DNA of 64,000 nucleotides, from assembly GCA_964503315.1 (NCBI GenBank), contig CAZCZL010000007.1:12327-76326 (forward strand), written 5' to 3'. The notes under the pieces were generated by a model. It did not search any database, was not told the origin of the DNA, and saw only the letters and a list, made by a program, of their open reading frames with translations. Both the position numbers and the translations under genes were made by a program. Shown here in pieces: positions 3,169 to 50,578 of this stretch. How positions within the stretch are numbered: position 1 is the stretch's first letter; each line of letters starts with the position of its first letter. The stretch is from an uncultured Ignavibacteriales bacterium. GTDB taxonomy: Bacteria > Zixibacteria > MSB-5A5 > GN15 > FEB-12.

Positions 3169-3795
3169 CTACTTCTTCTGTATCTCCTGCAATTGCGACA
3201 GCTGATAGACCTCTATCGAGCGGGCCAGCGTGTCGGCATACGGCGACCGCATCTGCTTGAGGAAATCAAGTTCCGCCTGGGCCCGTTTCAGCTCATGCAT
3301 TGCCAGGTAGGTCTCGCCGCGATATTCGCGCGCCTGCGCGAAATCCGGCTTGAGCGCAAGCGCCTCATCATATGCCGCCAGTGATTTTGCCAGGTCCCCC
3401 ATTTTGCGCCAGCAGTACCCGAGATAATTGTGCGCATCGGGCATCAGCGGATTAAGTTCAACTGCCTTATTGAACTTCTCGATCGCCTTCTCGTATTCTT
3501 TGCGCGCCTTGGCGTCCGAGGTCGCCCGGTAGTTGTAGGCGTAGAGCGAATCCCCTTTGATCCCTATGTCACGCGCTTTCTCGACATGCTTCACGCCGTC
3601 GTTGTATTCGCTGGTCGCTTTCTTGAGATTATCGGCGGCTTGCTCTTCGGGAGTTTTTTCACCCCCGCCGATCGCCATGGCGGTCGAGGAAAGAAGGATC
3701 ATGCTGAGAACTACGACGGCCGACGCCAAGGTGGCGCGAGTAACCACCCCGACCCGACCGGCGAGATTTGCGTAACATGAAAAGGCGCGTCGCAT
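3169..3795 (-). CDS. secreted tetratricopeptide repeat protein
   Basis: Signal-like N-terminus; TPRs 'AHNYLGYCWRKMG', 'AREYRGETYL'; exact start uncertain. Confidence 0.75.
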   Translation of the reverse strand: MRRAFSCYANLAGRVGVVTRATLASAVVVLSMILLSSTAMAIGGGEKTPEEQAADNLKKATSEYNDGVKHVEKARDIGIKGDSLYAYNYRATSDAKARKEYEKAIEKFNKAVELNPLMPDAHNYLGYCWRKMGDLAKSLAAYDEALALKPDFAQAREYRGETYLAMHELKRAQAELDFLKQMRSPYADTLARSIEVYQLSQLQEIQKK

Positions 3796-3850
3796 GTTAC
3801 AGACAACACGCGTCCGCGCAAAATGGTTCCGATAAGTCTATCTTGATGAT

Positions 3851-6460
3851 TTACTTGATGATAACCAGTTTCCCCATCTGCACCGAGCCGTCCGGCGCCT
3901 CCACTGTCCAGTAATACAGCCCCGACACCACCGCCTGTACATTCCGGTTTATCAGATCCCAGGTTTCGTATCGCGAATTGGGGTCGTCCGGGTCGACATC
4001 GTGTCGCAGTTCCCGCACCAGATCCCCATCCAGAGAATGAATTCGTATCGTACACTTCGGCGGGACATTCACGAAATGTATCCGCCGCTCTCTATCCGCA
4101 ATACGATCCGAGCCGCGCCCTTCGTAACCGGCGTCACGATAGTGCGCGTCGATTCGATACGGATTCGGATAGATATAGACCGGCGGCAACACCGAGTCCG
4201 CCTGGGCTTCGTCGGCGTACGGATAACAATTCTTGATGCCGGTCATTTTCGAGGTCTCAAGCGCGGGAAGTTCGACTTTGGGCGAGCCGTAATCATATGC
4301 CGTAATGTTGATATAATATGGCACGGTCGGCAGAAGGTCACGTATGATGCACTCATACTCGTAATATTTGAGATTTCCTTCCGGCGTCAGATCCTCCGCG
4401 GTGACCGTATCCAGTGGCCCGGGTCGACGCGCGTCCGGATACACTCGCTTGATTGGGGTCTGCAGACCCATCTGATAAACATTATGGTCGTGGGGGGTAA
4501 AACAGAAGAGAGAATCTAAAGAATATTTGTACTGATACGGATTGACCCGCGTGTAGGCCAATGGATCGAACAGCGAGTCATGGCACGGGTCGTTGCCGCG
4601 ACCATACAGGCACCGAATTTCATCAAGCGTCATCGGAATATCCTGTATCTCAAAATCCCCCGCGGGCGGCACCAGCGGATTCCAGACCCACTTGTCGTAA
4701 TTGCGACGGTCGTACCCCGCAAGCAGAGACATCGATCCCTCCCGATCATCCCTCCCGAGCCAGATATGATATCCCTCGAAATCATATAAGCCGGAGAATA
4801 TATCCTTGGTCGTCTCCGAGCGTTGGCCGTTAAAGCGGATGCGGATCGCGTTCAACTGCGGCTCAACCCAGAACACCGGTGCCGGGGGCGGTTGCACTCC
4901 TCGCCAATCCGCCACACCGTCGCCGCGATGATAGGTCGTATCCGCAAGGCTGATCACCCACTGGCCGTCGATCAGGACAGAATCAAGTACACAAACTCGA
5001 TACTCTCCCGCGTAACCATCGGAATCGGTATCGACTCCCGGGTTGTCGAATATCCACTCCGCCCAGGTCGCGTTGAGCGCGATATCCTCGAACGATACAT
5101 CGTCATACCACTTGTTGGGCCACTTGTTGATCAGGTCATATCCGTTATCTGGATCGGTATGGAAATTCTCACCGGCAACATAAGCGAACGCGAGCGACAG
5201 CTGCGCGCCCGGCGCCAAGCGGAATGGTCCGAACGACAGCACATAATACGCGTCATCGCCATTGGCGAGCGAGTCCCGATACTCGTACGGTGGGAACATC
5301 CAGACCGGATCATCCGGCCAGATCGTGCTGACATACGCCTGGTCGTAATCCCACTCGCCGTTGCTCATCAGGTAGTATTTGTTCCGGTCGCCAAGTGGCT
5401 CGCCGGTCCCGCCGGTATGAAAATCGCGGAGCGGTTTCTCCTCGGTCGGCTTGTGACGTGGCCCGAAGTCATAATTGAGACTGTAATTGTTGACCCACCA
5501 GTTGTACGATATCTGTTGTGTCTCCTCTGGTATCTGAAGAAACCGTATCCCTTCTATCGAGGTCGGCGACTTGTTGCTTCCTTTCCGCACAAACTCGCCA
5601 TCGATCGGGTCACCGTCATTATCCACGACCCAGGCCAGCCCCAGCGTATCGATGAATCCGCATCCGCGCACTGACGGGTAGGTTCCCAAAAAACCACAGA
5701 TATCATCTTCGGAGATGTAAAAATGGTCTTCGGGCCAACTCGGCTGACCGCAGTCCTGGTCGGATTGGATGCCGATATACGCCTGTTCTATAAAGCTGTA
5801 GCCGATATTCGTTATTTTCACATCAAACAACACAAAATCTTCTGCATACGACACTGACCAAGCGTACGAACGTTGTTCTATCTCAAGATTGAGTGGCCTA
5901 TGTGGGCGATGATCAAGATGGTCAAGAATCCCAAGATATCCATAACCATGTTGGGCGGTAAAGGTGTCGACGGACCAGCAGATAAAATCTTCTTCAGATA
6001 GGGCCCCGATAGACTCCGGCGCTTCCGGGTCCGCAATCGATCGGTGAACAAGAGCGTGATTAGGGTCCCCGTCAAAATTGAACTCCCATCCTAATTCATC
6101 CCTGTCAATGAACCCGACCATAGAAACTAGGGTATCACCACCGAGGATGCCTCCAACCCAAAGACTTGCTTCGTTGAGATATTGAATGCCCGACCACCGG
6201 GGGTACTCGCCACCAGCTCCACGCCAATCACCAATAATGCACTGCTCGTCAGCATATTGATACATGCCACCGATCCACCCCGCCGCAATCCCTATCCCCA
6301 ACTTGCCGATCGAGTGCGAAGCGTCGCAATACTCGACTTCCTGCGCCGCGCGAAGCACCGGCCGCTTTAACGAGTCTGAAGCATCAGGGATGGGTCGGGC
6401 ATAGGAAGGCGAAGAGCCCAGTACCAGAAACAGCAGGAATGCAATCGTGGCGTGTCGCAT
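3851..6460 (-). CDS. large secreted protein with C-terminal FlgD-Ig/T9SS-like sorting domain
   Basis: Signal peptide; C-terminal 'VYIYPNPYR...IRIHSLDGDLVREL...WDLINRN.Q.VVSGLY...GKLVIIK'. Confidence 0.8.
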   Translation of the reverse strand: MRHATIAFLLFLVLGSSPSYARPIPDASDSLKRPVLRAAQEVEYCDASHSIGKLGIGIAAGWIGGMYQYADEQCIIGDWRGAGGEYPRWSGIQYLNEASLWVGGILGGDTLVSMVGFIDRDELGWEFNFDGDPNHALVHRSIADPEAPESIGALSEEDFICWSVDTFTAQHGYGYLGILDHLDHRPHRPLNLEIEQRSYAWSVSYAEDFVLFDVKITNIGYSFIEQAYIGIQSDQDCGQPSWPEDHFYISEDDICGFLGTYPSVRGCGFIDTLGLAWVVDNDGDPIDGEFVRKGSNKSPTSIEGIRFLQIPEETQQISYNWWVNNYSLNYDFGPRHKPTEEKPLRDFHTGGTGEPLGDRNKYYLMSNGEWDYDQAYVSTIWPDDPVWMFPPYEYRDSLANGDDAYYVLSFGPFRLAPGAQLSLAFAYVAGENFHTDPDNGYDLINKWPNKWYDDVSFEDIALNATWAEWIFDNPGVDTDSDGYAGEYRVCVLDSVLIDGQWVISLADTTYHRGDGVADWRGVQPPPAPVFWVEPQLNAIRIRFNGQRSETTKDIFSGLYDFEGYHIWLGRDDREGSMSLLAGYDRRNYDKWVWNPLVPPAGDFEIQDIPMTLDEIRCLYGRGNDPCHDSLFDPLAYTRVNPYQYKYSLDSLFCFTPHDHNVYQMGLQTPIKRVYPDARRPGPLDTVTAEDLTPEGNLKYYEYECIIRDLLPTVPYYINITAYDYGSPKVELPALETSKMTGIKNCYPYADEAQADSVLPPVYIYPNPYRIDAHYRDAGYEGRGSDRIADRERRIHFVNVPPKCTIRIHSLDGDLVRELRHDVDPDDPNSRYETWDLINRNVQAVVSGLYYWTVEAPDGSVQMGKLVIIK

Positions 6461-6845
6461 GATCCCCCGATCTGTGCGTTCGTGAACGAAATCCTCAGAC
6501 GACTATACGATAGAAACAGAGACGAATCAATCGGTTTTCCGTGCAACAATCCCCGCCATTCGACCATCCAAGCTTTCCAACGTTCCGGCAGGTCTTGCTT
6601 CGCGGCTATTTCTTCCGCTATCAGCCATGCGACAACCGATAGCCGCACTCGCCGCGAAGTGTGACCTGCCGGACCCCTTTTGCCCCCTCTACATGGGGGG
6701 AACAACCGCCCCAAACCCCGGTTATCTGTATAGTAATTATTATCTTGGCTGGATTGGGCCTCAGGGCTATATTTCAGGCCGGAAGTCCGGCTGTTCAGTT
6801 TTTGCACTGTCTGCCGATAAAGATAACACGTTCAAGGAGTTGAAC

Positions 6846-7784: not shown

Positions 7785-8744
7785 ATGAGAATTGTCTACA
7801 TGGGCACGCCGGAGTTTGCCCGGTTGCCGCTCGCGCATTTATGTGAGAGCCGGCATTCCGTGCTTGCGGTCGTCACCGGTCCTGACAAGGTCGCCGGTCG
7901 CGGTCACAAGCTTATCCAAACCCCGGTCAAACAGGAAGCCGAATCGCGCGGCATCCCCGTCCTGACTCCCGCTTCCCTCAAGGAGCCAGGACTGGACGAT
8001 GCGTTGCGTCAATTCAATGCTGACCTGTTTGTGGTGATCGCGTTCCGGATATTGCCTGCCAGGCTGTTTACTATCCCACGGCTTGGCTCCATCAATATCC
8101 ACGGATCACTCCTTCCCAGGTACCGTGGCGCGGCGCCTATCAACTGGGCGCTCATCAACGGCGAGACCGAAACCGGACTCTCCAGTTTCTTTTTGAAACG
8201 CGAGGTCGACACCGGGAATGTCATCGGTCAGGTCAAGTGTGCCATCGCTGATGACGACACGTATGATTCTCTGGCGGAGAAAATGAGCGCGATGGCCGGG
8301 CCATTCCTGCTCGACACGCTCGACGCGATCGAAGCAGGCAAAACCGACGGCATGCCGCAGAACGATGCCAAGGCGACCGCCGCTCCCAAGCTAACTCCTT
8401 TCAATTCGATGATCGATTGGGGATTCCCGTCGGTCAACATCCGCAACTTTGTGCGGGGTCTCTGTAGCAAGCCGGCGGCCTACAGCTACTTTCGAGGGAA
8501 ACGAATCAAGATCCTCGCGTGTGAACGCGCGGATGACATGGCGCAACCCGGTCTTCGACCCGGCACCGTCCTGCAGGATAAACGACGTCTCCTCGTCGCC
8601 TGCGGTCCCGGCGCGGTCGACATCACCCGGATCGTGCCCGAAGGGAAAGCGGAAATGTCCGGCGCCGCTTTCGTCAATGGCTTTAAACCTCTCACCACCG
8701 AGCTGTTCGGGGAGATCCCGCGCGGGGTGAAGGAGCATGAGTGA
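7785..8744 (+). CDS. fmt: methionyl-tRNA formyltransferase
   Basis: 'MRIVYMGTPEFA', 'INIHGSLLPRYRGAAPINWA'; follows def. Confidence 0.97.
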   Translation: MRIVYMGTPEFARLPLAHLCESRHSVLAVVTGPDKVAGRGHKLIQTPVKQEAESRGIPVLTPASLKEPGLDDALRQFNADLFVVIAFRILPARLFTIPRLGSINIHGSLLPRYRGAAPINWALINGETETGLSSFFLKREVDTGNVIGQVKCAIADDDTYDSLAEKMSAMAGPFLLDTLDAIEAGKTDGMPQNDAKATAAPKLTPFNSMIDWGFPSVNIRNFVRGLCSKPAAYSYFRGKRIKILACERADDMAQPGLRPGTVLQDKRRLLVACGPGAVDITRIVPEGKAEMSGAAFVNGFKPLTTELFGEIPRGVKEHE

Positions 8745-10294
8745 AAACTGAAATTCTTATCAACTCGACCGAGTACGAAAAACGACTGGCTATGCTCGAA
8801 GATGACAAGCTGGTCGAACTGCAGGTCGAACGGCCGGATACCGAACGGATGGTTGGCGATATTTACAAAGCCAAGATCAAAACCGTTCTCCCCGGCATGC
8901 AAGCCGCCTTCGTCGATATCGGCATGGAAAAAGCAGCCTACCTGCATTCCTCCGACATCGGCAAAGATTACGGCGGCCGAAGCTACGATTCCGAAGAACT
9001 GGATGACGATGAAGCCCCCGTGCAGGTGGTCCGCAAGACCCGCCGCGCCGGTATCGAAACCGTTCTGAAGAAAAACCAGGATATCCTGGTGCAGGTCATC
9101 AAGGAACCTATCTCCACCAAGGGCCCGCGCGTCGCGACCGAGATATCCATCCCCGGACGCTTCCTCGTGCTGGTTCCCGATGATGACCATATCCGCATTT
9201 CCAAACGCATCACCGATTGGGGGGAGAAGCGCCGCCTCAAAAAAGTGGTCGCGCCACTCCGCCCCGAAGGATTCGGACTGATTGTCCGGACCGAAGCTGA
9301 GGGGGTCAACGAAGAAGATTTCCGCGCCGATATCAAACGCCTCCAGAAACTCTGGGCGAAATTGAAACGAAAAGCGGATACCATGTCCGCCCCGGCGCTC
9401 ATCCACAAAGAAGCGGATATGATGGTCTCTATGATCCGCGACGTCTTCACCGACGATGTCTCTCGTGTGCTGGTCGACAATCGCGACGATTACAAAAAGG
9501 TTGTGCAGTTCGCCCGCCAGGTCGCGCCGCATCTCAAAGACCGCGTCCAACTCTACAAAGGAAATCAGCCGCTCTTTGACATGTACAATCTCGAAAACGA
9601 GATCGACAAGATGCTCTCGCGCAAGGTCTGGATCAAGAAAGGCGCTTATATCGTCATCGACCAGACCGAAGCGATGGTGACCATCGATGTCAACACCGGA
9701 CGGTTTGTCGGCGGCAAGGATCAGGAACAGACGATCTTCGAGACCAACTTGCAGGCGGCGCGTGAGATCGCGCGGCAGATCCGTCTCCGCGATATCGGCG
9801 GACTGATCATCTGCGACTTCATCGACATGTACTCCCGCGAGAACCGCCGCCGATTGTACGAAGATTTCAAACGTGCGTTCTCGCGCGACCGCGCCAAACG
9901 GGGCATCAACCCGGTCACCGAATTCGGCCTGGTCGAAATGACCCGCGAACGTGTCCGCCCGTCGCATATGCACACGCTCTCCGAACAGTGCCCGCACTGT
10001 CAGGGATTAGGGCGAATCGTCTCCAAAGAAAACCTGGCGACCAAGATCGAGCGATGGTTCATTCGCGCAAAAGCGGCGAAGAAATTCGACAAGTTCCACC
10101 TCATCGTCAATCCGAACCTCGCGGCGACGATGGCGGAATCCGGTGAGAACCGCGTGGAACGTCTGATGAAGGCGCACAAGTTCCGCATCAATCTGGTGCG
10201 CGATACCACTATGCCCCAGCACGAGTTCCATATCTACAACGCGGACGACAACGCCGAGATCACCGACCAGTACAAGGAGCAAAAGGGCGCCTGA
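8741..10294 (+). CDS. rng: ribonuclease E/G family (RNase G-like)
   Basis: S1 domain 'GDIYKAKIKTVLPGMQAAFVDIG', 'IDVNTG', 'IRLRDIGGLIICDFIDM', CPHC Zn-link. Confidence 0.95.
   Translation: MKTEILINSTEYEKRLAMLEDDKLVELQVERPDTERMVGDIYKAKIKTVLPGMQAAFVDIGMEKAAYLHSSDIGKDYGGRSYDSEELDDDEAPVQVVRKTRRAGIETVLKKNQDILVQVIKEPISTKGPRVATEISIPGRFLVLVPDDDHIRISKRITDWGEKRRLKKVVAPLRPEGFGLIVRTEAEGVNEEDFRADIKRLQKLWAKLKRKADTMSAPALIHKEADMMVSMIRDVFTDDVSRVLVDNRDDYKKVVQFARQVAPHLKDRVQLYKGNQPLFDMYNLENEIDKMLSRKVWIKKGAYIVIDQTEAMVTIDVNTGRFVGGKDQEQTIFETNLQAAREIARQIRLRDIGGLIICDFIDMYSRENRRRLYEDFKRAFSRDRAKRGINPVTEFGLVEMTRERVRPSHMHTLSEQCPHCQGLGRIVSKENLATKIERWFIRAKAAKKFDKFHLIVNPNLAATMAESGENRVERLMKAHKFRINLVRDTTMPQHEFHIYNADDNAEITDQYKEQKGA
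10256..10294 (+). repeat. 39-bp direct repeat, copy 1 (last 13 codons of rng)
   Basis: GAGATCACCGACCAGTACAAGGAGCAAAAGGGCGCCTGA, identical to 12891-12929. Confidence 0.97.
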
Positions 10295-10321
10295 GCTGTC
10301 CCCCACTACTCTGAACTTTTC

Positions 10322-10358
10322 GACCCATCTGACTTCGCTCAGGCGGGTCTTTTCTTTT
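10322..10358 (+). terminator. intrinsic terminator downstream of rng
   Basis: Hairpin GACCCATCTGA..TCAGGCGGGTC followed by T-rich tract. Confidence 0.7.
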
Positions 10359-10488
10359 GACCTGTGGTGGACGGCTCTGGGATAATCCGGCGTCCGGCCG
10401 AATGACCACGACCGGCAAATGGGTTGTTTTTGGAGGAAAATATAGTATATTATAGCCACATTACTTACACTATCCAGCCGGGGTATGT

Positions 10489-12891
10489 ATGGGGTTCCGA
10501 ATCTGTCTGTTATTACTGCTCTTCTGTATTCTCTTCACATCGCTGACTTTGTCTGCGCAAAATTCCGAAAACCAATGGTGGTCTGACCAGTTCTACTTAC
10601 CTGGCCTTGATGGTCAGGTGAATTGCATGGTCGAGTTTGAAGGTGACCTTATCCTCGGTGGCGCTTTTACCCACGCCGAAAAGCTGACTGTTGGTCGGAT
10701 TGTCCGCTGGGATGGAACGTCGTTCTCACCGATCGGTGCTGGCTTCGACAAAGATGTCTCCGAACTGACCGTGCATCGTGGGGTGCTCTATGCCAAAGTC
10801 TTTACGTCCGAGCCCTACACTCTTGCCGAGTATTCTGTCTATCGATGGGAGAGAGGTGCTTGGGAGCCCATTGTTACAGTTCCTGAGGGTGGCATTCGGA
10901 CACTCGCGACCTGCGGTGATTCTCTTTTCATAGGTGGAATGATAGACTCTGTCGAAGGAGTCGCCGTCACCAACATTGCCGTTTTTGATGGCCGCGCCTG
11001 GAGCGCTATTGGAGCGGAACTGGATACTATGGTGACGCAGGTGACTTACCATGATGGGAGTCCTTTGGCCGTCGTCAGCAAAGCGACGGAATACACAAAC
11101 CTTTTCAACGAATCCTCGATTTGGCGTTTCGACGGTACGTCCTGGATTCCATTCGGCCCCACTTTCTCCGGCAGAGCGACGGTAGCCATGACGACTCACC
11201 TTGGCGAGCTGTATGCGGTTACCTGGGATCCAAACGCCAATGCCCCTGAGATCCAGTATCTGCTGCATCGGTGGTCAGGCAGCAACTGGGTCACCCTTGA
11301 TGAACAACAATCCACGTGTTATCTCACCAGTGTCCGAGACCTTTTCAGCTATGATGGTAGGTTATTTGCCGCCGGTTGGTTTTTCATGCGTGATGACACA
11401 TCCTATACGGCTGTAGTTGAATGGGATGGTACATCATATCGCAAGACCGGAGCCGAATTTGGAAACACCGCTACCGCGCTTGCCACATTCAACGGAGATC
11501 TGATCGCCGGCGGCGAGTTTGTTTGGGCTGGTGATTTCGGCGTCAACTATATCTCTCGATACGATGGCTCGACCTGGCGCCCGCTCAGCGATCAGTTTGA
11601 GGGTTTGGGGATTCAGGGAACGGTGAACTCGGTCTGTGCCCATGATTCACTGCTGGTGGCGGGCGGATACATGTTCACGGCTGGACAAGCCGCGGTGCGC
11701 GGTATCGCTCTGTTCGATGGGACGAAATGGTCGGCGATGGCCGGCGGTTGCCCTTCGGGATTGATCGGCAGTTCCGGTACTGTCGCGGACATAGTCTACT
11801 TCCAGGGTTCTTTCGTCGCCTGTGCCTCCGAAGGCTTCTTCGTCGACCAATCGGGAAATCGTTTCACCATTGCACGATGGACAGGTTCCGATTGGGAGAG
11901 GCTGGGAACAAACCCGCCAACGGCGTCGGCACTGGCAGTATACAACAACGAGCTCTATTGCGTGAGGCTGAGTCGAGTTTACCGATACGAAGGGGGAAAT
12001 TGGACTGTTCAATCGCCCGCACTTACGGGTAACATCTTTGATCTGGTTGTACACGAAGGTTCATTATACGCGGTAGGCAACCTTGCCTGGAATTTCGGCG
12101 ATGTCGTCAAATTGCTTCTGCGTTTCGATGGAACGACGTGGTCGACCATTGATATCCCAGGCAGCCCACTTCAGGTGTATGCCCTGGGGTCACTAGATCA
12201 TCATCTGTATCTTGGAGGACGGTGGGCCGGTCGTGGTGGAATCGGTGGAGTGAGGACGATGATGCGGTGGGACGGCAATATCTGGTCGGCAGTTCCTGAA
12301 TTCGAAGGTGCTGTCGGTTTCCAAATGCAGAAGATGGGCAGGTACGGAAAACATCTGATCACTTTTGGCTCCTTTACCGTGACCGATGGCCCAGACTCCT
12401 GCAAATTCATCGCTGGATTCGACGGGCAGGCATGGCACCAAATGGGATCAGGTTTTGATCTGCCGAACGGTGCAACTATGACCGAATACCTGGGCCGTTT
12501 GGTCGCGGGAGGTCAGATATCGATGGCGGGAGGCAAGCAGTCGAGAGGTATCGCCTTTTGGCAACCAGATCACGATGTCGACGCCCTCTACGATGGTGTA
12601 GACAACTGCCCTTACCGTTACAATCCTGATCAGGCCGACATCACCGGTGACGGCATCGGGGATGCCTGCTGTTGCGTCGGAACGACCGGCGATTTCAACC
12701 AGAGTCAGACCCTTGACCTGACTGACCTGAGCATTCTCATAACGATCCTCACGGGTTCCTACAACGAAACTCTCCCATGCCCATATGAGACGTACGCTGA
12801 CGGTTACGCGGGTATCACTCTTTCGGATCTCTCTCAACTGGTAGCCTATTTCACGCAATCGCCTAAACCGCAATTGCCAGGTTGCCCGTAG
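10489..12891 (+). CDS. secreted beta-propeller repeat protein with TSP3-like motif and C-terminal dockerin-like domain
   Basis: Signal peptide; repeated 'RWDG..W..+G.G' blades; 'DNCPYRYNPDQAD..GDGIGDACCCVG.TGDFN...DLTDLS...DLSQLVAY'. Confidence 0.85.
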   Translation: MGFRICLLLLLFCILFTSLTLSAQNSENQWWSDQFYLPGLDGQVNCMVEFEGDLILGGAFTHAEKLTVGRIVRWDGTSFSPIGAGFDKDVSELTVHRGVLYAKVFTSEPYTLAEYSVYRWERGAWEPIVTVPEGGIRTLATCGDSLFIGGMIDSVEGVAVTNIAVFDGRAWSAIGAELDTMVTQVTYHDGSPLAVVSKATEYTNLFNESSIWRFDGTSWIPFGPTFSGRATVAMTTHLGELYAVTWDPNANAPEIQYLLHRWSGSNWVTLDEQQSTCYLTSVRDLFSYDGRLFAAGWFFMRDDTSYTAVVEWDGTSYRKTGAEFGNTATALATFNGDLIAGGEFVWAGDFGVNYISRYDGSTWRPLSDQFEGLGIQGTVNSVCAHDSLLVAGGYMFTAGQAAVRGIALFDGTKWSAMAGGCPSGLIGSSGTVADIVYFQGSFVACASEGFFVDQSGNRFTIARWTGSDWERLGTNPPTASALAVYNNELYCVRLSRVYRYEGGNWTVQSPALTGNIFDLVVHEGSLYAVGNLAWNFGDVVKLLLRFDGTTWSTIDIPGSPLQVYALGSLDHHLYLGGRWAGRGGIGGVRTMMRWDGNIWSAVPEFEGAVGFQMQKMGRYGKHLITFGSFTVTDGPDSCKFIAGFDGQAWHQMGSGFDLPNGATMTEYLGRLVAGGQISMAGGKQSRGIAFWQPDHDVDALYDGVDNCPYRYNPDQADITGDGIGDACCCVGTTGDFNQSQTLDLTDLSILITILTGSYNETLPCPYETYADGYAGITLSDLSQLVAYFTQSPKPQLPGCP

Positions 12892-12929
12892 AGATCACCG
12901 ACCAGTACAAGGAGCAAAAGGGCGCCTGA
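12891..12929 (+). repeat. 39-bp direct repeat, copy 2
   Basis: Identical to 10256-10294; its first G is the last base of the TAG stop of the 800-aa gene. Confidence 0.97.
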
Positions 12930-12959
12930 ACAGCTCCTATAGCTTCTCCAGAGCATCAC

Positions 12960-12985
12960 AAAGCCGCCCCCTCGGGCGGCTTTTC
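12960..12985 (+). terminator. intrinsic terminator
   Basis: AAAGCCGCCC-CCTC-GGGCGGCTTTT. Confidence 0.85.
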
Positions 12986-13010
12986 TGTGCCTGGATCGTC
13001 CAGATAAATA

Positions 13011-13040
13011 TTGACAATATTGTCTTTAATCTGGTATATT
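13011..13040 (+). promoter_or_regulatory. sigma70-type promoter upstream of 13176 gene
   Basis: TTGACA (13011), 18-bp spacer, TG-n-TATATT (13035). Confidence 0.7.
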
Positions 13041-13175: not shown

Positions 13176-14582
13176 ATGTTCTATCAACCAATCTCTCAAC
13201 TCATACCCGCTGCGCGGCCTAGGCTCGCCATCCGATTCGCTGCTTTGACGCTGACCATTCTGGTCCTCTCCGGCGTGCACGCGATCGCACAGCCACTATT
13301 TGGAACAGGCGTCGACGGAGCCTGGGTCGTGAGCAACAACATCTATCTCTCGAATGAGATGAACTTCACCAATCTCACCGTCGACCCCGGCGTCACAATC
13401 TACACGAATGGCCATATCATTCGCGTGAGCGGTACATTGACCAATTATGGCACCATCACAGACTCAAGCTCAGGTGGCGCCGGTGGCCCCGGCGGAACAG
13501 GCGGTGCGGGTGGGCATATCTCTGGTGTGACTCTAATACCCGGAGCGACAGGCGGCAACGGCTTACCCGGACTGAGTGGAATATCTGGCGCTGGTACCGG
13601 CGGCTCTGGCGGCGGCGGCGGCGGCGGCGGCGGTCCCGCCCAAGATGTACTTGTCTCGAACATTGCTGATGGCGGCAGAGGCGGCGATGGCGGCGCGGGT
13701 GGCAAGGGTGGCGGCTATGTCCGCGTCTACGCGCGCACGCTCGACAACCTGGGTCTCATCCATGCTGACGGTGCCTCGGGGAATACAGGTGACAATGGAG
13801 CGGATGGCGAGAAAGTGCATTACTACCTGCCTTTCAATTATTTTGACATGGGTGGCGGTGGGGGTGGAGGGGGAGGCGGCGGGAATGGTGGCAATGGCGG
13901 AACCGTGCTGGTGGTGTACGACTCGCTCGTTTCGCTTGGCCTCCTGAGGGCAAACGGAGGTTCGTACGGCTCTGCTTCAGCGGGCGGTCGAAGATTCGTT
14001 CTGGCCGGAACCAAATCAGCGACCGCAACATGGACACACGGCGGCGATGGCGGCAACGAAGGCTGGGCTGGCGAAGGAGGGGGCGGACTGGTCGGATGGG
14101 CAGGAGTGTCCGCGGAGTATCGTGGCGGTACGGGAGAGGTTGGCATTATAGGCGCCAATGGCGTAGTTTCCATCTTCACATCCATCACTTGCTACAGCGA
14201 TATTGACGAAGACAACTGCGGGTGTCCTTCAGACTCAGCCCAGTTCGCTGGCTCGTGTGGCGCTGGTTATGTAGCTCTTGCCAACGACAACTGCCCATTG
14301 GTGTATAACCCGGACCAGGATGATGCCAATGGCGATGGCGTTGGCGATGCCTGCTGTTGCGTCGGCAAAACAGGCAATGTCAATGGGAGTGTGATCGAAG
14401 CACCTGATCTCACGGACCTCTCGATGTTGATCGGCTATTTGACCATCACGCCGACTCCCGTATTGCCATGTCCGCTAGAGGCAAATGTCAGCGGCACCGG
14501 CACTATCGATCTGACCGATCTGTCGATGCTCATCGGCTATCTGACGATCACCCCAACGCCAATTCTGCCGGACTGCCTTTGA
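13176..14582 (+). CDS. secreted glycine-rich protein with TSP3-like motif and C-terminal dockerin-like domain
   Basis: Signal peptide; poly-Gly GGAGG/GGGGGGG tracts; duplicated 'DLTDLSMLIGYLTITPTP'. Confidence 0.85.
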   Translation: MFYQPISQLIPAARPRLAIRFAALTLTILVLSGVHAIAQPLFGTGVDGAWVVSNNIYLSNEMNFTNLTVDPGVTIYTNGHIIRVSGTLTNYGTITDSSSGGAGGPGGTGGAGGHISGVTLIPGATGGNGLPGLSGISGAGTGGSGGGGGGGGGPAQDVLVSNIADGGRGGDGGAGGKGGGYVRVYARTLDNLGLIHADGASGNTGDNGADGEKVHYYLPFNYFDMGGGGGGGGGGGNGGNGGTVLVVYDSLVSLGLLRANGGSYGSASAGGRRFVLAGTKSATATWTHGGDGGNEGWAGEGGGGLVGWAGVSAEYRGGTGEVGIIGANGVVSIFTSITCYSDIDEDNCGCPSDSAQFAGSCGAGYVALANDNCPLVYNPDQDDANGDGVGDACCCVGKTGNVNGSVIEAPDLTDLSMLIGYLTITPTPVLPCPLEANVSGTGTIDLTDLSMLIGYLTITPTPILPDCL

Positions 14583-14615: not shown

Positions 14616-14645
14616 AACACCCCGCCGGGGCGGGGTGTTCTTTTT
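14616..14645 (+). terminator. intrinsic terminator
   Basis: AACACCCCGCC..GGCGGGGTGTT followed by CTTTTT. Confidence 0.85.
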
Positions 14646-14770: not shown

Positions 14771-15106
14771 ATGAAACAGAGGGATTCCCTCTCAGGTGAC
14801 ATCGTCACTGTAGAACTGTCCGGCAAGCTCATTGCCGGCGACCAACTCACCTCATTCCTCGGGCGCGTGCAGTATTACCTGTCGCTCAACAAGAATCGGT
14901 TCATAGTCGATCTGCACGATGTCGAGCGAATGAACTCAGCCGGGATCGGCGCGCTCGTGGCGGCCCACATGGCGGCGACGCGCGCGGGAGGGAAGTTCGT
15001 GCTGGCCAACATCACCAATGTCGAGGATCTGTTGAACGTCACGCAACTGCTCCGGGTCTTCGAGAGCTACGACTCCCGTGACGAAGCTATGCTGGCCCTG
15101 CAGTAG
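14771..15106 (+). CDS. STAS-domain anti-sigma factor antagonist
   Basis: 'VDLHDVERMNSAGIGALV' with phosphorylatable Ser. Confidence 0.9.
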   Translation: MKQRDSLSGDIVTVELSGKLIAGDQLTSFLGRVQYYLSLNKNRFIVDLHDVERMNSAGIGALVAAHMAATRAGGKFVLANITNVEDLLNVTQLLRVFESYDSRDEAMLALQ

Positions 15107-20514: not shown

Positions 20515-21858
20515 CTATGCGCGCCCTACCCTCGGCATTACGATCGCCGCCGCCCGTGTCGCCAGAGGTCGCAACGCCAGCGCCAACGCCATCAACGCAT
20601 CGCACTCGTTATTGTCATCCCACCGCGCTGAGCGAAGTTCATCCTCCAATGACCACGTTCTCCCCGGGCCATCCGGCAACTCCCAGCGATCATAGGCGAC
20701 GAGACCACGGGCATGCATCAGCTCAACATTGGTGAGCAGTTCAGCTTTGTTCATCGGTGTGAAGATCACTCCCGTCGGTTTGACATCATCAAGCTGTTGA
20801 AGTATCACATCCCCAAGTCCGGTCGCGTCGATAAGCAGTTCACCCGGAAACTCCATCTGTCGTTTCCGTATCTTCTCAAGTATCACCGGCCAGTCGAACA
20901 TCCTGAGCCGTTCCAGTTTCACAATTCGCGCGATACCTTCGTGAACACAGATCGTGATCCCAACTGTCGCTGTTCTCTTCCGCGCCAGATCCCAACCGGA
21001 AATAAAGCGACACCCCGTGAGATCATCTATCGGCGGAAGCATGCGCATCCGCGCGAGCGCGGCATCGATATCCCTCCCCGGGATCACCTCACCGCCGGAA
21101 TCGACAAATTCGCCAAGAATGTTCTGCTTCAGTCGCGTCTCGGAAAAGTACCGCACCCGTTCGTCCAGATACTCCCGCGAGATATGTTCATTATCCCGGC
21201 TGTCGCCGCGCTGGCAATAGCCCGGCCGTTTCCCGTCGACAATCTCATTCGCCCGACGGTACAGCCAGTTTTTGCCGTTCGGTGTCGAAACGAGATCAAG
21301 CGTCCCTTCGCGATCCGCAAGGCGCATCATCAACACCTCTTCCACGACATGTTCCGCGTTCGGGTCAAATGCGACTTCGTCATAGACGACAAAGTCATAA
21401 TCATTTCCGAGCAGATAATCCCCGCGGTTCTGGGTAGTGCGCGCTTCAATCGTCGCGCCATTCGTCAGCGTGATCTGGAGAAACGGCGTATGCAGGACCG
21501 ATTGAACCAGCGGCTTCATCCATGCCGAACGATATATCAGCCGTAAGGCATGCAGCAAAACCAGGTCCGCCTGATTTTGCGTAATAGAGACCACCGCCGC
21601 TCGGTAACGATCGGCGCTGTCGTACTTCCGGTCTCGATATCTATAGACCGCGTGGTGCAGAAGTTTCACCGCCGAGACAAACGACTTCCCCCAGCGATTC
21701 CCCGTCACCAGGATATTCTCCCGCCTGACCGAGTTCGCGAGCCATTGCCGCTGGCCATCGTGCAGTGAGATGCCGAGTATCTTCGTCGCGAACGATGGAA
21801 TATCCAGCACGCCGTCGAGCCAGACATTTTCTACCGGCGGCACTATATCATCCGGCAT
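20515..21858 (-). CDS. phage terminase large subunit (Terminase_6-like)
   Basis: Walker A 'GNRWGKS', Walker B 'FVVYDE', motif III 'STPNG', nuclease 'GWDLA', 'DATGLGD', 'CDALMALALA'. Confidence 0.9.
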   Translation of the reverse strand: MPDDIVPPVENVWLDGVLDIPSFATKILGISLHDGQRQWLANSVRRENILVTGNRWGKSFVSAVKLLHHAVYRYRDRKYDSADRYRAAVVSITQNQADLVLLHALRLIYRSAWMKPLVQSVLHTPFLQITLTNGATIEARTTQNRGDYLLGNDYDFVVYDEVAFDPNAEHVVEEVLMMRLADREGTLDLVSTPNGKNWLYRRANEIVDGKRPGYCQRGDSRDNEHISREYLDERVRYFSETRLKQNILGEFVDSGGEVIPGRDIDAALARMRMLPPIDDLTGCRFISGWDLARKRTATVGITICVHEGIARIVKLERLRMFDWPVILEKIRKRQMEFPGELLIDATGLGDVILQQLDDVKPTGVIFTPMNKAELLTNVELMHARGLVAYDRWELPDGPGRTWSLEDELRSARWDDNNECDALMALALALRPLATRAAAIVMPRVGRA

Positions 21859-23075
21859 GCGCGCTCGCGGGCAACTGATTCATCGATCAGACCGGCCTGG
21901 AACAGCCTGAGCAGATTGTCCACCCGCTTCGACTCTATCCCGATAGAATCCGCCGCCTGATAGGCGAAGGTATTGTCGAATTCAAACCGGCACCTGACAT
22001 CAAATCCACCCAGCGCCAGTTCGATATTTCCGATCCATTCAAGAAAGTCCGCCACCTGTGCCTGCACCGAGCGGACCTGACGCATCACGATATCGAATTT
22101 GAAATCCGACCAGGTCGTAGTGGCGCCGTATGAGTAGCCGAGCAGGAATGGCGCGAGGTTAGTTCCGGCGCAGATATCCTCGATCAGCGCGCGATGATTG
22201 ATAAACCAGCTATTGGTCACTCCGCGCGCGGTCTCCGGCCCGATATAATCGATCGTCACATTATCCCAGGTGACCGGGTTGTCATCCACTTCGCACTCGC
22301 GGATCATCGAGACCGTCGCGTCGAAATACTTATTTATCCGGTCAGTGTACGCGTTGTCCGATTCCCCGGCCATCCGCTCCGGCGGCGTTATCTTGACATG
22401 CAGGCGGCTGTAACCGGCGTTATGTTGCGCGCGCTGAAGATCCCGTATCAACTGCTGTTCGATAAAAGAAATGAACGGCACCGGATGGAGGATCGACCTC
22501 CCGAACGGCTCGGATATCGTATTCGCCAACGCGACATACCGGAAATCCGCGCGATCCAGCGGAAGCGTGATCTCGCCGTTGTCATACACAAGTTGAGGTC
22601 CGCGCGCGGTTTGTTCGCCACGGAGATGTACCGCGTCGACCGGCACAAATTGATCGACTCCGGTTGCATCAGGAAGCATGGTCACAAATCCGCCAAATAT
22701 GCCGTCTCGATAAAGCGAAGTGAAAAGATCGGGAAGCATCGTAGCGACGCCGAGGTGGTGACAGTTTGGCATCCTCATGATTCGTTCGGACAGACGGTTG
22801 AGTCGCGCGAGTGGGGCGCTGATTGATTCTTTCTCCGGGATTTCCTGACCATCGGACGAAAGAATCAAAAATCTCCCCGGCGCGGCGGAGAGGCGTGCCC
22901 AGGTCCAGACACAGGCGGAGATTATCGGTATCTGATCGCACAGGAAGCGGTAGAGCATTGTGCGATAGCGCCCCGAGTGCAAGTCATTGGGGGAGAGGGC
23001 GAGCATCCGGTTCAGTTGTTTGGTGGTGAGGGAAGGATTTTCTTTGACGGTGGTGGCAAGACGGGCTGTGGTCAT
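21843..23075 (-). CDS. phage portal protein
   Basis: ~410 aa; 'PIISACVWTWARL', 'PFGRSIL', 'IEDICAGTNLAPFLLG', 'GLIDE' end; overlaps terL start; AAAGGAG RBS before ATG 23075. Confidence 0.8.
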   Translation of the reverse strand: MTTARLATTVKENPSLTTKQLNRMLALSPNDLHSGRYRTMLYRFLCDQIPIISACVWTWARLSAAPGRFLILSSDGQEIPEKESISAPLARLNRLSERIMRMPNCHHLGVATMLPDLFTSLYRDGIFGGFVTMLPDATGVDQFVPVDAVHLRGEQTARGPQLVYDNGEITLPLDRADFRYVALANTISEPFGRSILHPVPFISFIEQQLIRDLQRAQHNAGYSRLHVKITPPERMAGESDNAYTDRINKYFDATVSMIRECEVDDNPVTWDNVTIDYIGPETARGVTNSWFINHRALIEDICAGTNLAPFLLGYSYGATTTWSDFKFDIVMRQVRSVQAQVADFLEWIGNIELALGGFDVRCRFEFDNTFAYQAADSIGIESKRVDNLLRLFQAGLIDESVARERACRMI

Positions 23076-23269
23076 GGTGCAGACTCCTTTCATATAGGGG
23101 CCGGCACTTGGGAGAACTGACAAATGTAATACAGAGTTGAATAATGGAGATGTACACTAGGAATTGTGTCTGAGCGTTTACTCGCGTGTTTATCCCCATC
23201 TTCTCATCGTTGACTTCTCCGCCCCACTATTCTATATTCCCGTTACAACCCTCAAACGGACACAACACT

Positions 23270-24272: not shown

Positions 24273-24430
24273 CACCGTACCCCACCATTTATGGTGGGAC
24301 TCTTAAGCAGTGCTCGCTTCTTAACTTTGTGCCCCACTCAACTCGGGCTGAGCGGAGTCGAAGCCCGAATCCCGTTGTTCAGGGCAAACGGGGACGTCTG
24401 CCTCTCAAATATAGACGTCCCCCTATCCGG
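24273..24430. repeat. REP-like palindrome cluster
   Basis: CACCGTACCCCACCATTTATGGTGGG (also at 50532), CGGGCTGAGCGGAGTCGAAGCCCG, GGCAAACGGGGACGTCTGCC. Confidence 0.8.
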
Positions 24431-25926: not shown

Positions 25927-26255
25927 GAACTTCCTCCTGGCCGGACTGCAAGCCGCTTCCTATTTGGGCGACATGACCCGGCATTGGTTTTCCCGCAAAA
26001 AGAGGGAGAGGGGTGGGTCCGACAAGGACATGCCCGTCACAAACCAATTGGGGGATAAGGGGATAGCCGTATCACGTGAGTCACTTTGACTACGCCTGAC
26101 CGTCGAGACTGTCTGTCTGCACGCTTTTTGCGTATACTCGAAGAGGGAGGGGGCGTGGTTTAGTTTTGAGCGGCAGACGTCCTCGTCTGCCCTTCTAGAG
26201 AGATAAGCCCGGGCAGAGCAGGAGCTCTGCCGCGCAACTGACAAAAGAGGATCGC

Positions 26256-27049: not shown

Positions 27050-27495
27050 TCGTAGGGCGGGTCCGTCATCGAACCCGCCTCTAATGACAAAGCGAAAACT
27101 GACCATCTAAGATTATCGCAATCCCTGCAACGCCTCTTCCCAGCGAAAGCTGGGATACAGACTTCACTGTCATCGCGAGCCTTGCCGGGCAGTGAACGAA
27201 CGTCTCAAGACAGTCTTTCGAGGGCAAGGCGTCGCGATCTCACTTATACGTAGAAGAAACTGAGATCACGACGCTTTGCTTTGTCAAACGGATGAAGCAA
27301 AGCTCGTGATGACGTTCGTGGGTCATTGCGAGTGAAGCGAAGCAATCAATTATCGGGAGTGAATCGGATTAATCTATCGCCGGCAGCGCACTTCGACTAC
27401 GCTCAGTGCGATTACTGGTCGGGCAAACGGGGACGTTTGCCGCGCATAAGAATCGGGCTGAGCGGAGCCTGCCCTGAGTTCATGCTCAGGGTCGA
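27050..27495. repeat. dense cluster of REP-like stem-loop elements (BIME-like)
   Basis: Several palindromes incl. CTGTCATCGCGAGCCTTGCC..GGCAAGGCGTCGCGATC, GTCATTGCGAGTGAAGCGAAGCAATC, CTTCGACTACGCTCAG, CGGGCTGAGCGGAG..TCGAAGCCCG. Confidence 0.8.
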
Positions 27496-34132: not shown

Positions 34133-35305
34133 CTAATAGCAGACCGGCAGCGACTGGGTCACCCCCAGCAAATACGCGATGATCATTGATAGGTCAGTCA
34201 GATCAAGAACCCCGTTGCAGTTGACATCTCCCGGTGGGTAGCTGATCGGTGGCCCGACCACAAAACCGACAGGCAGGTCTGCCTGCGGCAGCGCCACCTC
34301 TAACTGCGAGGTCGCGTTCTGAATCTGGATCGAGCTGAAGTAGTTCCCTTCCGGCAACATCGTGCCGTCAGCGGTCACTTGGAACGTCACCGGGGTGGTG
34401 AGACTGCCGGCCGGAAGGCCGAGCATCTTAACCCACGAGTCAGCGGCGCTTAGGTCAAAAGTGATGGCTGTGCCACTCGAAGTGAACGATACGTCGAAGG
34501 TATCCCGCGCCATCTTCCCGGCCGCGCCGTCAAAGGTCAGACTGCTGACCGACATCTTGAGCGTATCCGGCGGGAACTGGTGTTCGTAAAAAACGATCGT
34601 TGGCACCACCAGATCGCCGCCGCGAGAGATGCAAATACGACGGAACTGATCGATCTGATTCTCGACCAGAATGAGATCGGCTCCGGTCGAACCGGGAGTC
34701 AGTCGGCCAAACTTTAACCAATGGAGGTCCTGCTGTCCCGCCAGAACATCCTCTGTCCGATACTTGGCAAATCCATAACTGGGCTTGGTCCTGTCCAAGT
34801 TCCAATAATTCCCCGCCGCAAATCCCTCATTCTCGAAATAATCACCGCTTGAAACGTATTGAAAGCCCCCGTTGCTTCCGGGCATCATCTGTAGAAACAC
34901 ACAGACACCTGCGGCACCCGGTTGCAGTGAACCCCTGATCGTCAGGACAACTTCATTGATGCCGTCCGGCACCGAGGTTAGCCGCGGAATAAAAAGCGTG
35001 TCGTTGGGCGACGGAGCAAAACTGTACGTCTGCGATGGCGAACAGTCGTAGACACCGTTTGGGTAGGTAATGAACAGGTTCTCTACTATCCTGACAATGT
35101 CGCCATGGGCGACCCCTGTCCGGTCATCCATGTCCATCCGTGGCGTCCATGGTGAGGCATTGAAGTAGAAATGGCTGAAAAGATAGGCAATGTCCGCGAT
35201 ATCGATCTGTCCACTGCCATTGACATCTCCGCATTGCTGCGCCCGTGCAGGCAACGCGATGCAAAGAAGCACTGCTACAACCTGAAGCAATCTGTGGATT
35301 CTCAT
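34133..35305 (-). CDS. secreted protein with N- and C-terminal dockerin-like domains and a BACON-like domain
   Basis: 'CGDVNGSGQIDIADIAYL' and 'GDVNCNGVLDLTDLSMIIAYL'; 'SLTF...SW+' BACON-like segment. Confidence 0.8.
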   Translation of the reverse strand: MRIHRLLQVVAVLLCIALPARAQQCGDVNGSGQIDIADIAYLFSHFYFNASPWTPRMDMDDRTGVAHGDIVRIVENLFITYPNGVYDCSPSQTYSFAPSPNDTLFIPRLTSVPDGINEVVLTIRGSLQPGAAGVCVFLQMMPGSNGGFQYVSSGDYFENEGFAAGNYWNLDRTKPSYGFAKYRTEDVLAGQQDLHWLKFGRLTPGSTGADLILVENQIDQFRRICISRGGDLVVPTIVFYEHQFPPDTLKMSVSSLTFDGAAGKMARDTFDVSFTSSGTAITFDLSAADSWVKMLGLPAGSLTTPVTFQVTADGTMLPEGNYFSSIQIQNATSQLEVALPQADLPVGFVVGPPISYPPGDVNCNGVLDLTDLSMIIAYLLGVTQSLPVCY

Positions 35306-44772: not shown

Positions 44773-45271
44773 AACCGCCTTCATCTGTCTCGTGATCGGC
44801 ATTCTTATCGGATGCACCGGCGGAGACAACACCGGCACGGCTGACAAACCTGTCGCCGAGATCGATGACCGTGCCGCGGTCCAGGAATCCCTTACCGAGG
44901 TCATCACCCGCTGGCGCTACAAGGACAAAGCCGGCCTCTACGACAACGAGTTCCCTTATCTTCGCGAAAAGATGTCGTTCGACGAGTACCTCCAGACCAA
45001 AGATATGCAGATGGATGCTGACACCGTTATGGGGATCGAAGTGAAGGAGTGTTACTTCCATGACCGCGATTCTGTCGATGTCCTGGTGGAGGTCCTGTTC
45101 GAAGGGCCCAAAAAGATCAAGACCCGCATGCGCGACGCATATCGCATGTTCTTCTGGGACGGCAAATGGATCCGCCCCACGCTTTCCAATATCGATTCGC
45201 AAAAGGAGTGGGAAAAGATGAAGAAAGCGTACGAGGAAGCGGTCAAGGAAGAGGATGACTCGGGCAACTGA
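44729..45271 (+). CDS. hypothetical lipoprotein (NTF2-like)
   Basis: Lipobox-like 'ILIGC'; start uncertain (overlaps mutase end). Confidence 0.65.
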
Positions 45272-45272
45272 T

Positions 45273-45695
45273 ATGTCCGATACACTCATCTCTCATGTCG
45301 GCATCGCCGTCGCCGATCTGGAAAAAGCGATCATCCTCTATCAGCAACTCACCGGACTCGCGCCCGCACCGATCGTTGAGGTTCCCGACCAGAAGGTTCG
45401 CGTCGCCATGTTTGCCGCTCCCGCAGGCCATCCGCACCCCGGCGGACGAATTGAACTGGTCGCGGCCACTTCTCCGGATTCCCCCATCGCGAAATTTATC
45501 GCCCGCAAAGGGGAGGGACTGCATCATATCTGCATCTATGTGGATGATATCAACGCCCGCCTCGCTGCGCTCAAAGCCGCTGGTCTGAAATTGATCGATG
45601 AATCGCCGCGTATCGGCGCCGATGGCGAGAAGATCGCCTTTGTGCATCCCGCCTCCACCGGCGGAGTTCTGCTGGAACTTCAGGAAAAAAACTAG
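45273..45695 (+). CDS. mce: methylmalonyl-CoA epimerase
   Basis: 'HVGIAV.DL', 'IELV', 'GEGLHHIC', 'AFVHP...GVLLEL'. Confidence 0.93.
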   Translation: MSDTLISHVGIAVADLEKAIILYQQLTGLAPAPIVEVPDQKVRVAMFAAPAGHPHPGGRIELVAATSPDSPIAKFIARKGEGLHHICIYVDDINARLAALKAAGLKLIDESPRIGADGEKIAFVHPASTGGVLLELQEKN

Positions 45696-46462
45696 CCGAC
45701 TCGGCTGACTTGACGGCTCTGTCCACAGAACGTACAGACCGACTCCAGATGACGATTCTCCGTCCCGCACGCGCATTTCCAGTGCGATGACTTCACCTCG
45801 TTCATCTTCGCCTTCTGATTCTGTCGAAAGCGCGCAAAGAAGAGAATACCAATAATGAGCAATATGGGAACGCCGAATGTCAGCATCCGATTTTTCGGCG
45901 CCAGGAAGACATCTTTCTCATGTTTTCCCACAAACCGGAAATCCTGCTGCATCCCGGCCAGATCCTCTGCGAATTGCGGATAATCCTCAAACCCGGCCCG
46001 CCCCCAGAGCGTGAATAGATACTGATCGCCGCTATTCAAACGATACAGCACCCCCATCATCCGATGCCGCACCATCGCCCCTTCCGTCATATCCTGCGAA
46101 GTGAACTCCAGCACAAAGCGGACGTTGTCGCCGTCGTTGTAGCCGCTCGAAGTCAGCAGTTTCGAATTGGGGAGAGTCAGGATGACCGAATCGATCACGC
46201 GATCGACCGACGCTTTCAATGATGCCTGATTATCGATCGACCCCTCCAACTCAAGCGTCGACTTGAATATCAGCATCTCCGACTCTTTGCCGGAGGACAT
46301 CAGCAGAAACGGATAGGAACTACTATCCCCCAATACCTCCCAGCCATCATCTACGGGCAGTTCGATCTCATCCGCCAACCGGACCACCTGCGCCGAAATC
46401 GGCAGGGCGATGAGCAGTATGCTTGCCGTCAGAATTACGCTCGGTATAAAGGGAAATCGCAT
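45692..46462 (-). CDS. exported protein with C-terminal TM anchor and cytoplasmic RanBP2-type zinc finger
   Basis: Signal peptide; TM 'FGVPILLIIGILFFA'; 'WKCACGTENR...CTFCG'. Confidence 0.75.
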   Translation of the reverse strand: MRFPFIPSVILTASILLIALPISAQVVRLADEIELPVDDGWEVLGDSSSYPFLLMSSGKESEMLIFKSTLELEGSIDNQASLKASVDRVIDSVILTLPNSKLLTSSGYNDGDNVRFVLEFTSQDMTEGAMVRHRMMGVLYRLNSGDQYLFTLWGRAGFEDYPQFAEDLAGMQQDFRFVGKHEKDVFLAPKNRMLTFGVPILLIIGILFFARFRQNQKAKMNEVKSSHWKCACGTENRHLESVCTFCGQSRQVSRVG

Positions 46463-46513
46463 AGATGCATTATCGGCAGAATCCCCGGAAACCCAAAGGA
46501 GGCCCGAACAATT

Positions 46514-50323: not shown

Positions 50324-50329
50324 TCGCGT

Positions 50330-50512
50330 GGGCTTCGACTGCGCTCAGCCCGATTACATCTGCGCGGCAGACGTCCTCGTCTGCCTGTGAGACAGCTTGA
50401 TGTCTGTCATCGCGAGGTTTGCCGGCACTACTCGATCATCTCAACCGAACTCTCCGCGGCAAACCGTCGCGATCTCTACTGATCAATTGGGCTGAGCGTA
50501 GTCGAAGCCCAA
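50330..50512. repeat. composite REP mosaic, copy 1
   Basis: A(rc)-B-C-A arrangement; see findings. Confidence 0.9.
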
Positions 50513-50578
50513 ATTCGAACAACCCAATCACCACCGTACCCCACCATTTATGGTGGGCCATCACAAGGAAAATCCCCC

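Follow-up and report, generated by a model that had tools for sequence, protein, structure and literature searches.

A Zixibacterium from sludge and wastewater carries, behind its ribonuclease gene rng, an exact second copy of the last 39 bp of that gene, and between the two copies lies a single gene for a putatively secreted 800-aa protein. We have analyzed this arrangement in a 64,000-nt stretch of the genome (the window; all coordinates refer to it) and have compared it with the corresponding loci of relatives found in public metagenomes. The stretch from rng to the STAS and gyrB genes is a strain-variable locus in the Zixibacteria clade of the window. It occurs in two alternative forms, which we call H1 and H2, and as a merger of the two, which is the form in the window. 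We propose, with a probability that we put at about 0.7, that one homologous and one illegitimate crossover merged H1 and H2 and left an orphan rng 3′ end behind. The best reading of the second copy is that it is a recombination scar rather than an attachment site.

Three arrangements of one locus

The repeat, GAGATCACCGACCAGTACAAGGAGCAAAAGGGCGCCTGA, occupies positions 10256-10294 at the end of rng and again positions 12891-12929, with 0 mismatches. A first-pass annotation of the window, made without database searches, had reported this duplication of the rng end, TGA included, and we can confirm it. Beyond the 39-mer the two copies have different sequence on both sides, so the exact repeat is 39 bp long. 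A scan of the window at up to 3 mismatches finds no third copy, and dinucleotide shuffles did not produce a match in any of 100 cases. The same annotation was right that the stop codon of the 800-aa gene shares its final base with the second copy: the TAG is at 12889-12891, and its G is base 1 of the repeat. Between the copies lie, as described there, a terminator, a promoter-like site and one secreted-protein gene. The features of the locus are the following.

8741-10294, plus strand: rng, Rne/Rng-family ribonuclease, 517 aa (PF10150, 358 bits; TIGR00757, 507 bits)
10256-10294, plus strand: first copy of the 39-mer, the functional rng 3′ end (codons 506-517 and TGA, in frame), identical to the single copy in loci L083, L086 and L092
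10322-10349, plus strand: T1, terminator hairpin and U-run after rng (−15 kcal/mol, z −2.35), homologous to the post-rng spacer of L003 (H1)
10357-10386, plus strand: promoter-like TTGACC-18-GATAAT upstream of the 800-aa gene (10/12 positions, a consensus match only)
10489-12891, plus strand: gene of the H1 module, for an 800-aa secreted tandem beta-propeller protein with a C-terminal thrombospondin type-3 (TSP3)/dockerin-like module
12879-12891, plus strand: novel joint, spanned by the TAG stop; the nearest H1 haplotypes diverge from 12879 on
12891-12929, plus strand: second 39-mer copy, non-coding, an orphaned rng 3′ end with which the H2 segment begins
12960-12983, plus strand: T2, a 10-bp GC hairpin and U-run, the native rng terminator of H2 (kept after the rng stop in L083 and L002), which here ends the 800-aa gene
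13011-13040, plus strand: promoter-like TTGACA-18-TATATT with TG, upstream of the 468-aa gene (11/12 positions match)
13176-14582, plus strand: gene of the H2 module; its product is a Gly-rich secreted protein of 468 aa that shares the C-terminal TSP3-CCCVG-DLTDLS module
14616-14639, plus strand: T3, terminator common to all haplotypes (after the 468-aa gene in the window, L002 and L083; after the 800-aa gene in L003 and L087)
14771-15106, plus strand: STAS-domain gene, conserved, which bounds the locus on the right (100% protein identity among the window, L002, L003 and L083)

The gene rng is the last of a conserved yajC-def-fmt-rng block, which is syntenic in about 60 Zixibacteria loci. What comes after rng depends on the strain. 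In H1, found in L003 (about 96% identical to the window) and L087, the order is rng, T1, 800-aa gene, T3 and STAS, and neither a second rng tail nor the 468-aa gene is present in these two loci. In H2, the order is rng with its 39-mer, T2, 468-aa gene and T3. We observe H2 in L083, L086 and L092, which are Logan contigs from three runs and 98.2% identical to the window over yajC-rng, and also in L002 and L084, which are about 94% identical. In the first three of these loci the sequence runs from AACACC into the identical 39-mer, then into ACAGCTC, T2, a homologue of the 468-aa gene, STAS and gyrB. This arrangement is exactly that of the window minus 10295-12929, that is, a natural empty site. 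The first-pass annotation had expected recombination between the copies to leave rng intact, and had proposed to compare the region downstream of rng across strains; L083, L086 and L092 hold just such an allele, with an intact rng, a single identical 39-mer and then the sequence that follows the second copy in the window. The merged haplotype is the window form, and it is seen in most of the DNA runs examined.

Which boundaries in the window are new? Alignments relate T1 to the post-rng spacer of L003, and T2 to the post-rng spacer of L083 and L002, while T3 is in all haplotypes. These correspondences make two of the three window boundaries native, and leave only the one at about 12879-12891 as new. 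Thus rng to T1 and 39-mer to T2 are native contiguities, and there is a single novel joint. Each gene of the product retains a terminator (rng-T1, 800-T2 and 468-T3), so that the merged locus is functional by construction.

The parental haplotypes can be found in the same samples. Contigs of runs X8 and X20 have an 800-aa gene 3′ end that is identical to the window through 12878 and then continues into an H1 tail. The merged joint has zero depth in X18 and X20 despite the 800 3′-end contigs there; X18 holds an H2-type rng end and T2 spacer alongside the 800 3′ end, and X6 holds window-type and H2-like T2 variants together. With parental haplotypes occurring together, there was opportunity for exchange.

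In the mechanism that we propose, one homologous exchange in a shared flank together with one illegitimate joint would have set an H2 segment downstream of an H1 module. That illegitimate joint, at about 12879-12891, would connect the end of the 800-aa ORF with codon 506 of rng in another copy of the locus, the H2 segment starting 39 bp before the rng stop. Two routes could lead there. One (route a) is homology-facilitated illegitimate recombination of incoming linear DNA; the other (route b) is single-crossover integration of a circularized fragment carrying the 39-bp rng tail. The window-type rng tail is on both parental molecules. RecA-type recombination between the two 39-mers could presumably delete the 800 module again. 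The first-pass annotation had offered homology-driven capture as the second of two explanations, and the evidence essentially favors it.

There are points that weigh against a merger of this kind. The joint lies no more than 1-2 nt from the stop codon of the 800-aa ORF and recreates a stop (TAG, vs. TGA in the H1 relatives). It is somewhat improbable that a random illegitimate event would coincide with a stop codon, unless selection filtered the products. Clear microhomology cannot be shown at the joint, which reads CCGT-A-GAGATC and in which A12890 fits neither parent. Because the nearest H1 tails part from the window at 12879, the joint is bracketed and not pinpointed. As to direction and timing, H1 DNA may have entered an H2 recipient, or the reverse may have happened, or an older tandem with later deletions may have given the same set of haplotypes. 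Finally, Logan contigs are built at k=31, less than the 39-bp repeat, so that integration and an empty site with a separate circle look alike in them. We saw no public contig spanning the 800-aa gene, the 39-mer and T2 in one piece. The integrated order thus rests on the window assembly, on depth ratios, on the native rng-T1 linkage and on a 211.8-kb NCBI contig that has the same 800-aa protein.

Two further observations concern the surroundings of rng in relatives. In runs X12-X14, X25 and X26, the T1 spacer opens with (A/G)CAGCTCC, like T2 (in the window, compare 10295-10302 with 12930-12937). In these strains the repeat would be about 47 nt, and H1 and H2 share about 8 nt past the rng stop. 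X26 has a third rng-tail allele (..AAGACCGGCCTAGGC..). Most other Zixibacteria (loci L004-L033) carry a conserved gene of 225-260 aa directly after rng. This gene is not in the window clade, in which the variable locus and then STAS-gyrB follow rng, so that synteny in this clade breaks at the rng 3′ boundary.

Alternatives to the proposed recent merger

When did the duplication arise? Upstream identities give the tree ((window, L083), L003), L002. Both copies of the 39-mer share the same 6/39 differences from L002 and the same 9/39 differences from L003, and both are the allele of the window and L083. Between the copies we observe 0 differences, vs. about 9 expected for an old duplication at that rate. 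Because the rng tail is fast-evolving and yet the copies are identical, the duplication would be recent relative to the L002 and L003 splits, unless gene conversion has homogenized the copies.

That proviso leads to the alternative that survives best, although we think it unlikely. The clade ancestor may have had a tandem locus, rng-T1-800-(rng tail)-T2-468, from which H2 lost T1-800 between the rng tails and H1 lost the orphan tail and T2-468, all by deletion, with conversion keeping the 39-mers of the window identical. In favor of an old tandem is the age of the two linkages, rng-T1 (window, L003) and rng-T2 (L083, L002), both of which are old, and the structure of H2 is exactly what a deletion between the repeats predicts. 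It also agrees with the 800-aa gene diverging in step with housekeeping genes: the gene is about 96-97% identical to the L003 copy (97% protein identity to the L003 orthologue, P0001), and the upstream housekeeping genes are 96.2% identical. However, the second copy is non-coding and nonetheless identical to the first in a sequence that evolves fast. Conversion over just 39 bp at a distance of 2.6 kb is inefficient, and at least 3 independent deletions are needed, of which the one in L003 would end neatly between the 800 stop and T3.

The other explanation in the first-pass annotation, that the copies are the attL and attR of a minimal cassette mobilized in trans, is not supported, and we regard it as quite improbable. 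Here T1-800-39mer would be the element and the rng 3′ end its attachment (att) site, with a recombinase of the tyrosine or serine type, encoded at another place, moving it much as recombinase-less SCC-like or cis-mobilizable elements are moved (SCC, staphylococcal cassette chromosome). The picture is attractive in that one gene is flanked by perfect direct repeats that derive from the target, the 3′ end of a conserved gene, that there is an empty site in nature and that rng stays intact. But in L003 and L087, T1-800 directly follows the rng stop with no second rng end resembling an attR. The left boundary is thus a native contiguity and not an att junction. With 39-mer to T2 native too, only one joint is novel, where an att-flanked cassette, be it SCC-like, cis-mobilizable-element-like or integron-cassette-like, should have two novel junctions and always carry the second att copy. 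The empty-site genomes show about 2% divergence from the window and a second indel, and they are therefore different strains rather than excisants.

The properties of the 39-mer itself do not resemble those of a core site with conservation or structure and with reuse in other genomes. Beyond the H2 loci that have the identical 39-mer, it is not conserved in the next relatives (6/39 and 9/39 positions differ, as above), we found no fold for it (z 0.15) and no dyad symmetry, and by unitig depth it is present at about 2 copies per genome. A duplicated rng tail occurs at 0 of 75 other rng loci, the exact 39-mer has 0 matches in viral contigs, and a degenerate rng-tail pattern has 0 matches in JGI metagenome contigs. 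The annotation had seen no recombinase inside the insert, and this extends to the rest of the scanned window: a Pfam scan found no integrase, resolvase or transposase in 44 of the 45 longest non-overlapping ORFs of at least 150 aa in the 64 kb (45243-45776 was unscanned). Should the rng tail be a real recombination site after all, with T1-800-39mer excised and re-integrated in trans, Zixibacteria would have a switchable surface-protein locus behind a housekeeping gene, and the H1-only genomes would be secondary deletions.

It remains to ask whether the structure is real. The chromosome could be truly H2, with the 2,635-bp unit a separate circle or mis-joined at the 39-bp repeat. The limits of k=31 contigs described above leave room for this reading, but we find it hardly credible. 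No replication gene is on the unit, L003 has rng-T1-800 linked on the chromosome, the 211.8-kb contig carries the same 800-aa protein, and 150-nt reads readily span 39 bp in assemblers with k > 39. The joint at 12890/12891, from the 800-aa gene into the 39-mer, is found on Logan contigs from several studies, in more than 10 independent runs (X1-X6, X9, X11-X14, X16, X17 and X26), and the insert has the depth of its flanks. In independent samples, insert vs. flank depths were 14.1 vs. 11.8 / 10.8, 9.6 vs. 10.8 / 7.8 and 6.8 vs. 6.3 / 5.2. The 39-nt unitig, on the other hand, has about twice the depth of the flanks, which corresponds to about 2 copies per genome. An assembly artefact can be rejected on the same two grounds, the number of runs with the joint and the equal depths.

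Logan contigs from sludge, wastewater, bioreactor and soil runs also break as a true 39-bp repeat predicts, with ends at 10285 and 12920 and starts at 10265 and 12900. Individual contigs span rng, the 39-mer and T1 (in X10), and the 800-aa gene into the 39-mer (in X17, X26 and others). Contigs with a 10294 to 12930 deletion were absent from 24 DNA or untyped and 4 RNA-seq runs, but wherever a run has the merged form, k=31 would hide them. Only 2 reads came from the raw-read runs X21 and X22, which is too sparse, and a look for Nanopore or PacBio runs turned up none. Exact-protein look-ups of rng, the 468-aa protein and P0122 returned no record. In k=31 contigs the repeat always truncates the window-type rng.

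Two further candidates were rejected: a transposon target-site duplication, since there is no transposase, there are no inverted repeats at the insert ends, the repeat is 39 bp rather than 2-15 bp and the left boundary is native, the insert starting exactly where H1 genomes continue past rng; and an attC-like structured site, since the 39-mer is unstructured.

Genes of the locus and other features of the window

The 800-aa protein had been annotated as a secreted propeller-dockerin. The first half of this description stands: the N-terminus is signal-peptide-like, and a motif of about 48 residues, repeated about 14 times, is modelled as tandem beta-propellers (AlphaFold2 (AF2) model with pLDDT 78 and pTM 0.79; the best PDB folds are GH74 double propellers). 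The dockerin match, on the other hand, is sub-threshold (15.7 bits vs. a cut-off of 22.9), and the protein contains a thrombospondin type-3 repeat, which matches thrombospondin-2 with an E value of 5e-10. Contigs 100% identical to the gene occur in the soil metatranscriptome runs X27 and X28, a hint that it is transcribed. The claim that its codons are more often A/T-ending than those of its neighbors has the direction right, with a GC content at third codon positions (GC3) of 0.575 vs. 0.733 for rng and 0.741 for gyrB, but the deviation is only 1.35 standard deviations (sd) under the window mean (mean 0.663, sd 0.065). A foreign origin was considered and rejected; GC3 is inside the window range and, as the gene diverges in step with the housekeeping genes, there is no sign of one.

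Downstream of the second 39-mer, the 66-nt stretch 12930-12995, which contains T2, has a folding energy of −33 kcal/mol (z −5.45). L083 and L002 keep the first hexamer, TTGACA, of the promoter-like site ahead of the 468-aa gene (13011-13040). The 468-aa protein is hypervariable in its Gly-rich N-terminal part: the protein is 56% identical to its L002 homologue, and the flanking genes are 98-100% identical. The homologues in L083 (8407-9809) and L092 are frameshifted by a 1-bp deletion near window position 13405. The GGC-rich stretch of the gene (13599-13713) draws very deep unrelated contigs in read mapping.

The 800-aa and 468-aa genes are related at their 3′ ends. Repeat D5 (12601-12705 and 14286-14390, one within each gene) is 70% identical, and the C-terminal TSP3 repeat-CCCVG-DLTDLS module has about 57% protein identity between the two. 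Within the window this module is confined to these two genes. Bona fide Dockerin_1 domains are on other secreted proteins of the window, at 34133-35305 and 59022-61184, both on the minus strand.

A second strain-variable gene, of 869 aa, lies in the window at 3763-6679 (ORF 3851-6460, minus strand). It has no Pfam match, and it has a C-terminus weakly similar to PorZ of the type IX secretion system (T9SS). The gene is in the window and L003, and L083 and L002 carry about 105 bp of unrelated sequence instead, so its pattern of presence and absence matches that of the 800-aa gene. No direct repeat flanks the 3763-6679 segment; it is a plain replacement indel.

Farther along, at 20515-23123 on the minus strand, an ORF resembling a terminase large subunit (PF03237, E 1e-10) adjoins a 426-aa ORF of unassigned function. 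The terminase-like gene is kept at the same place in L002, and no integrase was seen there. The region, about 3 kb beyond gyrB, may be a prophage remnant or a module like those of gene transfer agents (GTA-like).

The window also has families of intergenic palindromic repeats like the repetitive extragenic palindromic (REP) ones, for example GCGGCAGACGTCCTCGTCTGCC and TCGGGCTGAGCGGAGTCGAAGCCCGA. They are at 24273-24408, 26164-26237, 27167-27446, 41041, 46510-46827, 50329-50557, 51028-51189, 52333-52495 and 58132-58845. One unit of about 118 nt has 4 copies, and positions 24273 and 50532 share a perfect 26-nt repeat.

Comparison with known systems

The locus documents the addition of a gene, not a swap, at a strain-variable locus without mobile-element machinery, and it does so in an uncultured phylum, with both parental haplotypes, the product and the scar all visible in public metagenomes. 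It also flags a hotspot of secreted TSP3/dockerin-like proteins that vary among strains about 94-98% identical. For the reading of att-like direct repeats in metagenome-assembled genomes it is a worked example. A perfect 3′-end repeat and a natural empty site are insufficient for calling an integrative element, and it is necessary to count the novel junctions.

The integrative elements to compare with are SCCmec and the recombinase-less SCC-like elements at rlmH/orfX, and phage 21 and e14 at icd, all of which target and restore the 3′ end of a protein-coding gene. They use a conserved core site, to which insertions return in different strains and species, and a dedicated recombinase. The window locus is like them in that a conserved gene has an insertion at its 3′ end, with direct repeats and an intact target ORF, and the elements' own recombinase may also be absent. 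Unlike at those sites, here no recombinase was found in the 64 kb, the site is neither conserved nor reused, and the supposed element is also found at the same place without the second repeat.

Closer to the merger that we propose are homology-facilitated illegitimate recombination and single-crossover integration, as in Acinetobacter, S. pneumoniae, P. stutzeri and E. coli conjugation. These have one homologous and one non-homologous joint, as we propose for the window locus. In E. coli conjugation, single crossovers of circularized fragments gave duplications of 109-950 bp of the homologous segment, flanking the insert (PMC3240628). The single-crossover route likewise matches in that a direct duplication of the homologous segment flanks the inserted DNA. 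The differences are that the duplication here is 39 bp vs. 109-950 bp in those experiments, that no microhomology is shown and that the process here is inferred solely by comparing haplotypes.

Homology-facilitated illegitimate recombination has also been proposed for displaced modules at type VI secretion system (T6SS) and Rhs loci, in the T6SS clusters of Vibrio cholerae, where effector 3′ ends are shifted downstream (PMC5361080). The C-terminal displacement arrays of Rhs, contact-dependent inhibition (CDI) and T6SS effector-immunity loci differ from our locus in several ways. The anchor here is a housekeeping ribonuclease gene, orphaned for no more than its final 39 bp; its modules encode secreted proteins of the propeller and Gly-rich kinds in place of toxin-immunity pairs; and there is one displacement and no array. 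On the other hand, there are likenesses to these arrays. A conserved upstream anchor is followed by alternative modules in related strains, here between identical rng and STAS flanks. No integrase is involved. A module would have been added and not swapped, the resident 3′ end and its module being pushed downstream, and an orphan fragment of the anchor stands in front of what would have been displaced. Just one of the joints is non-homologous, the stretch 12879-12891 that has no counterpart in H1 or H2.

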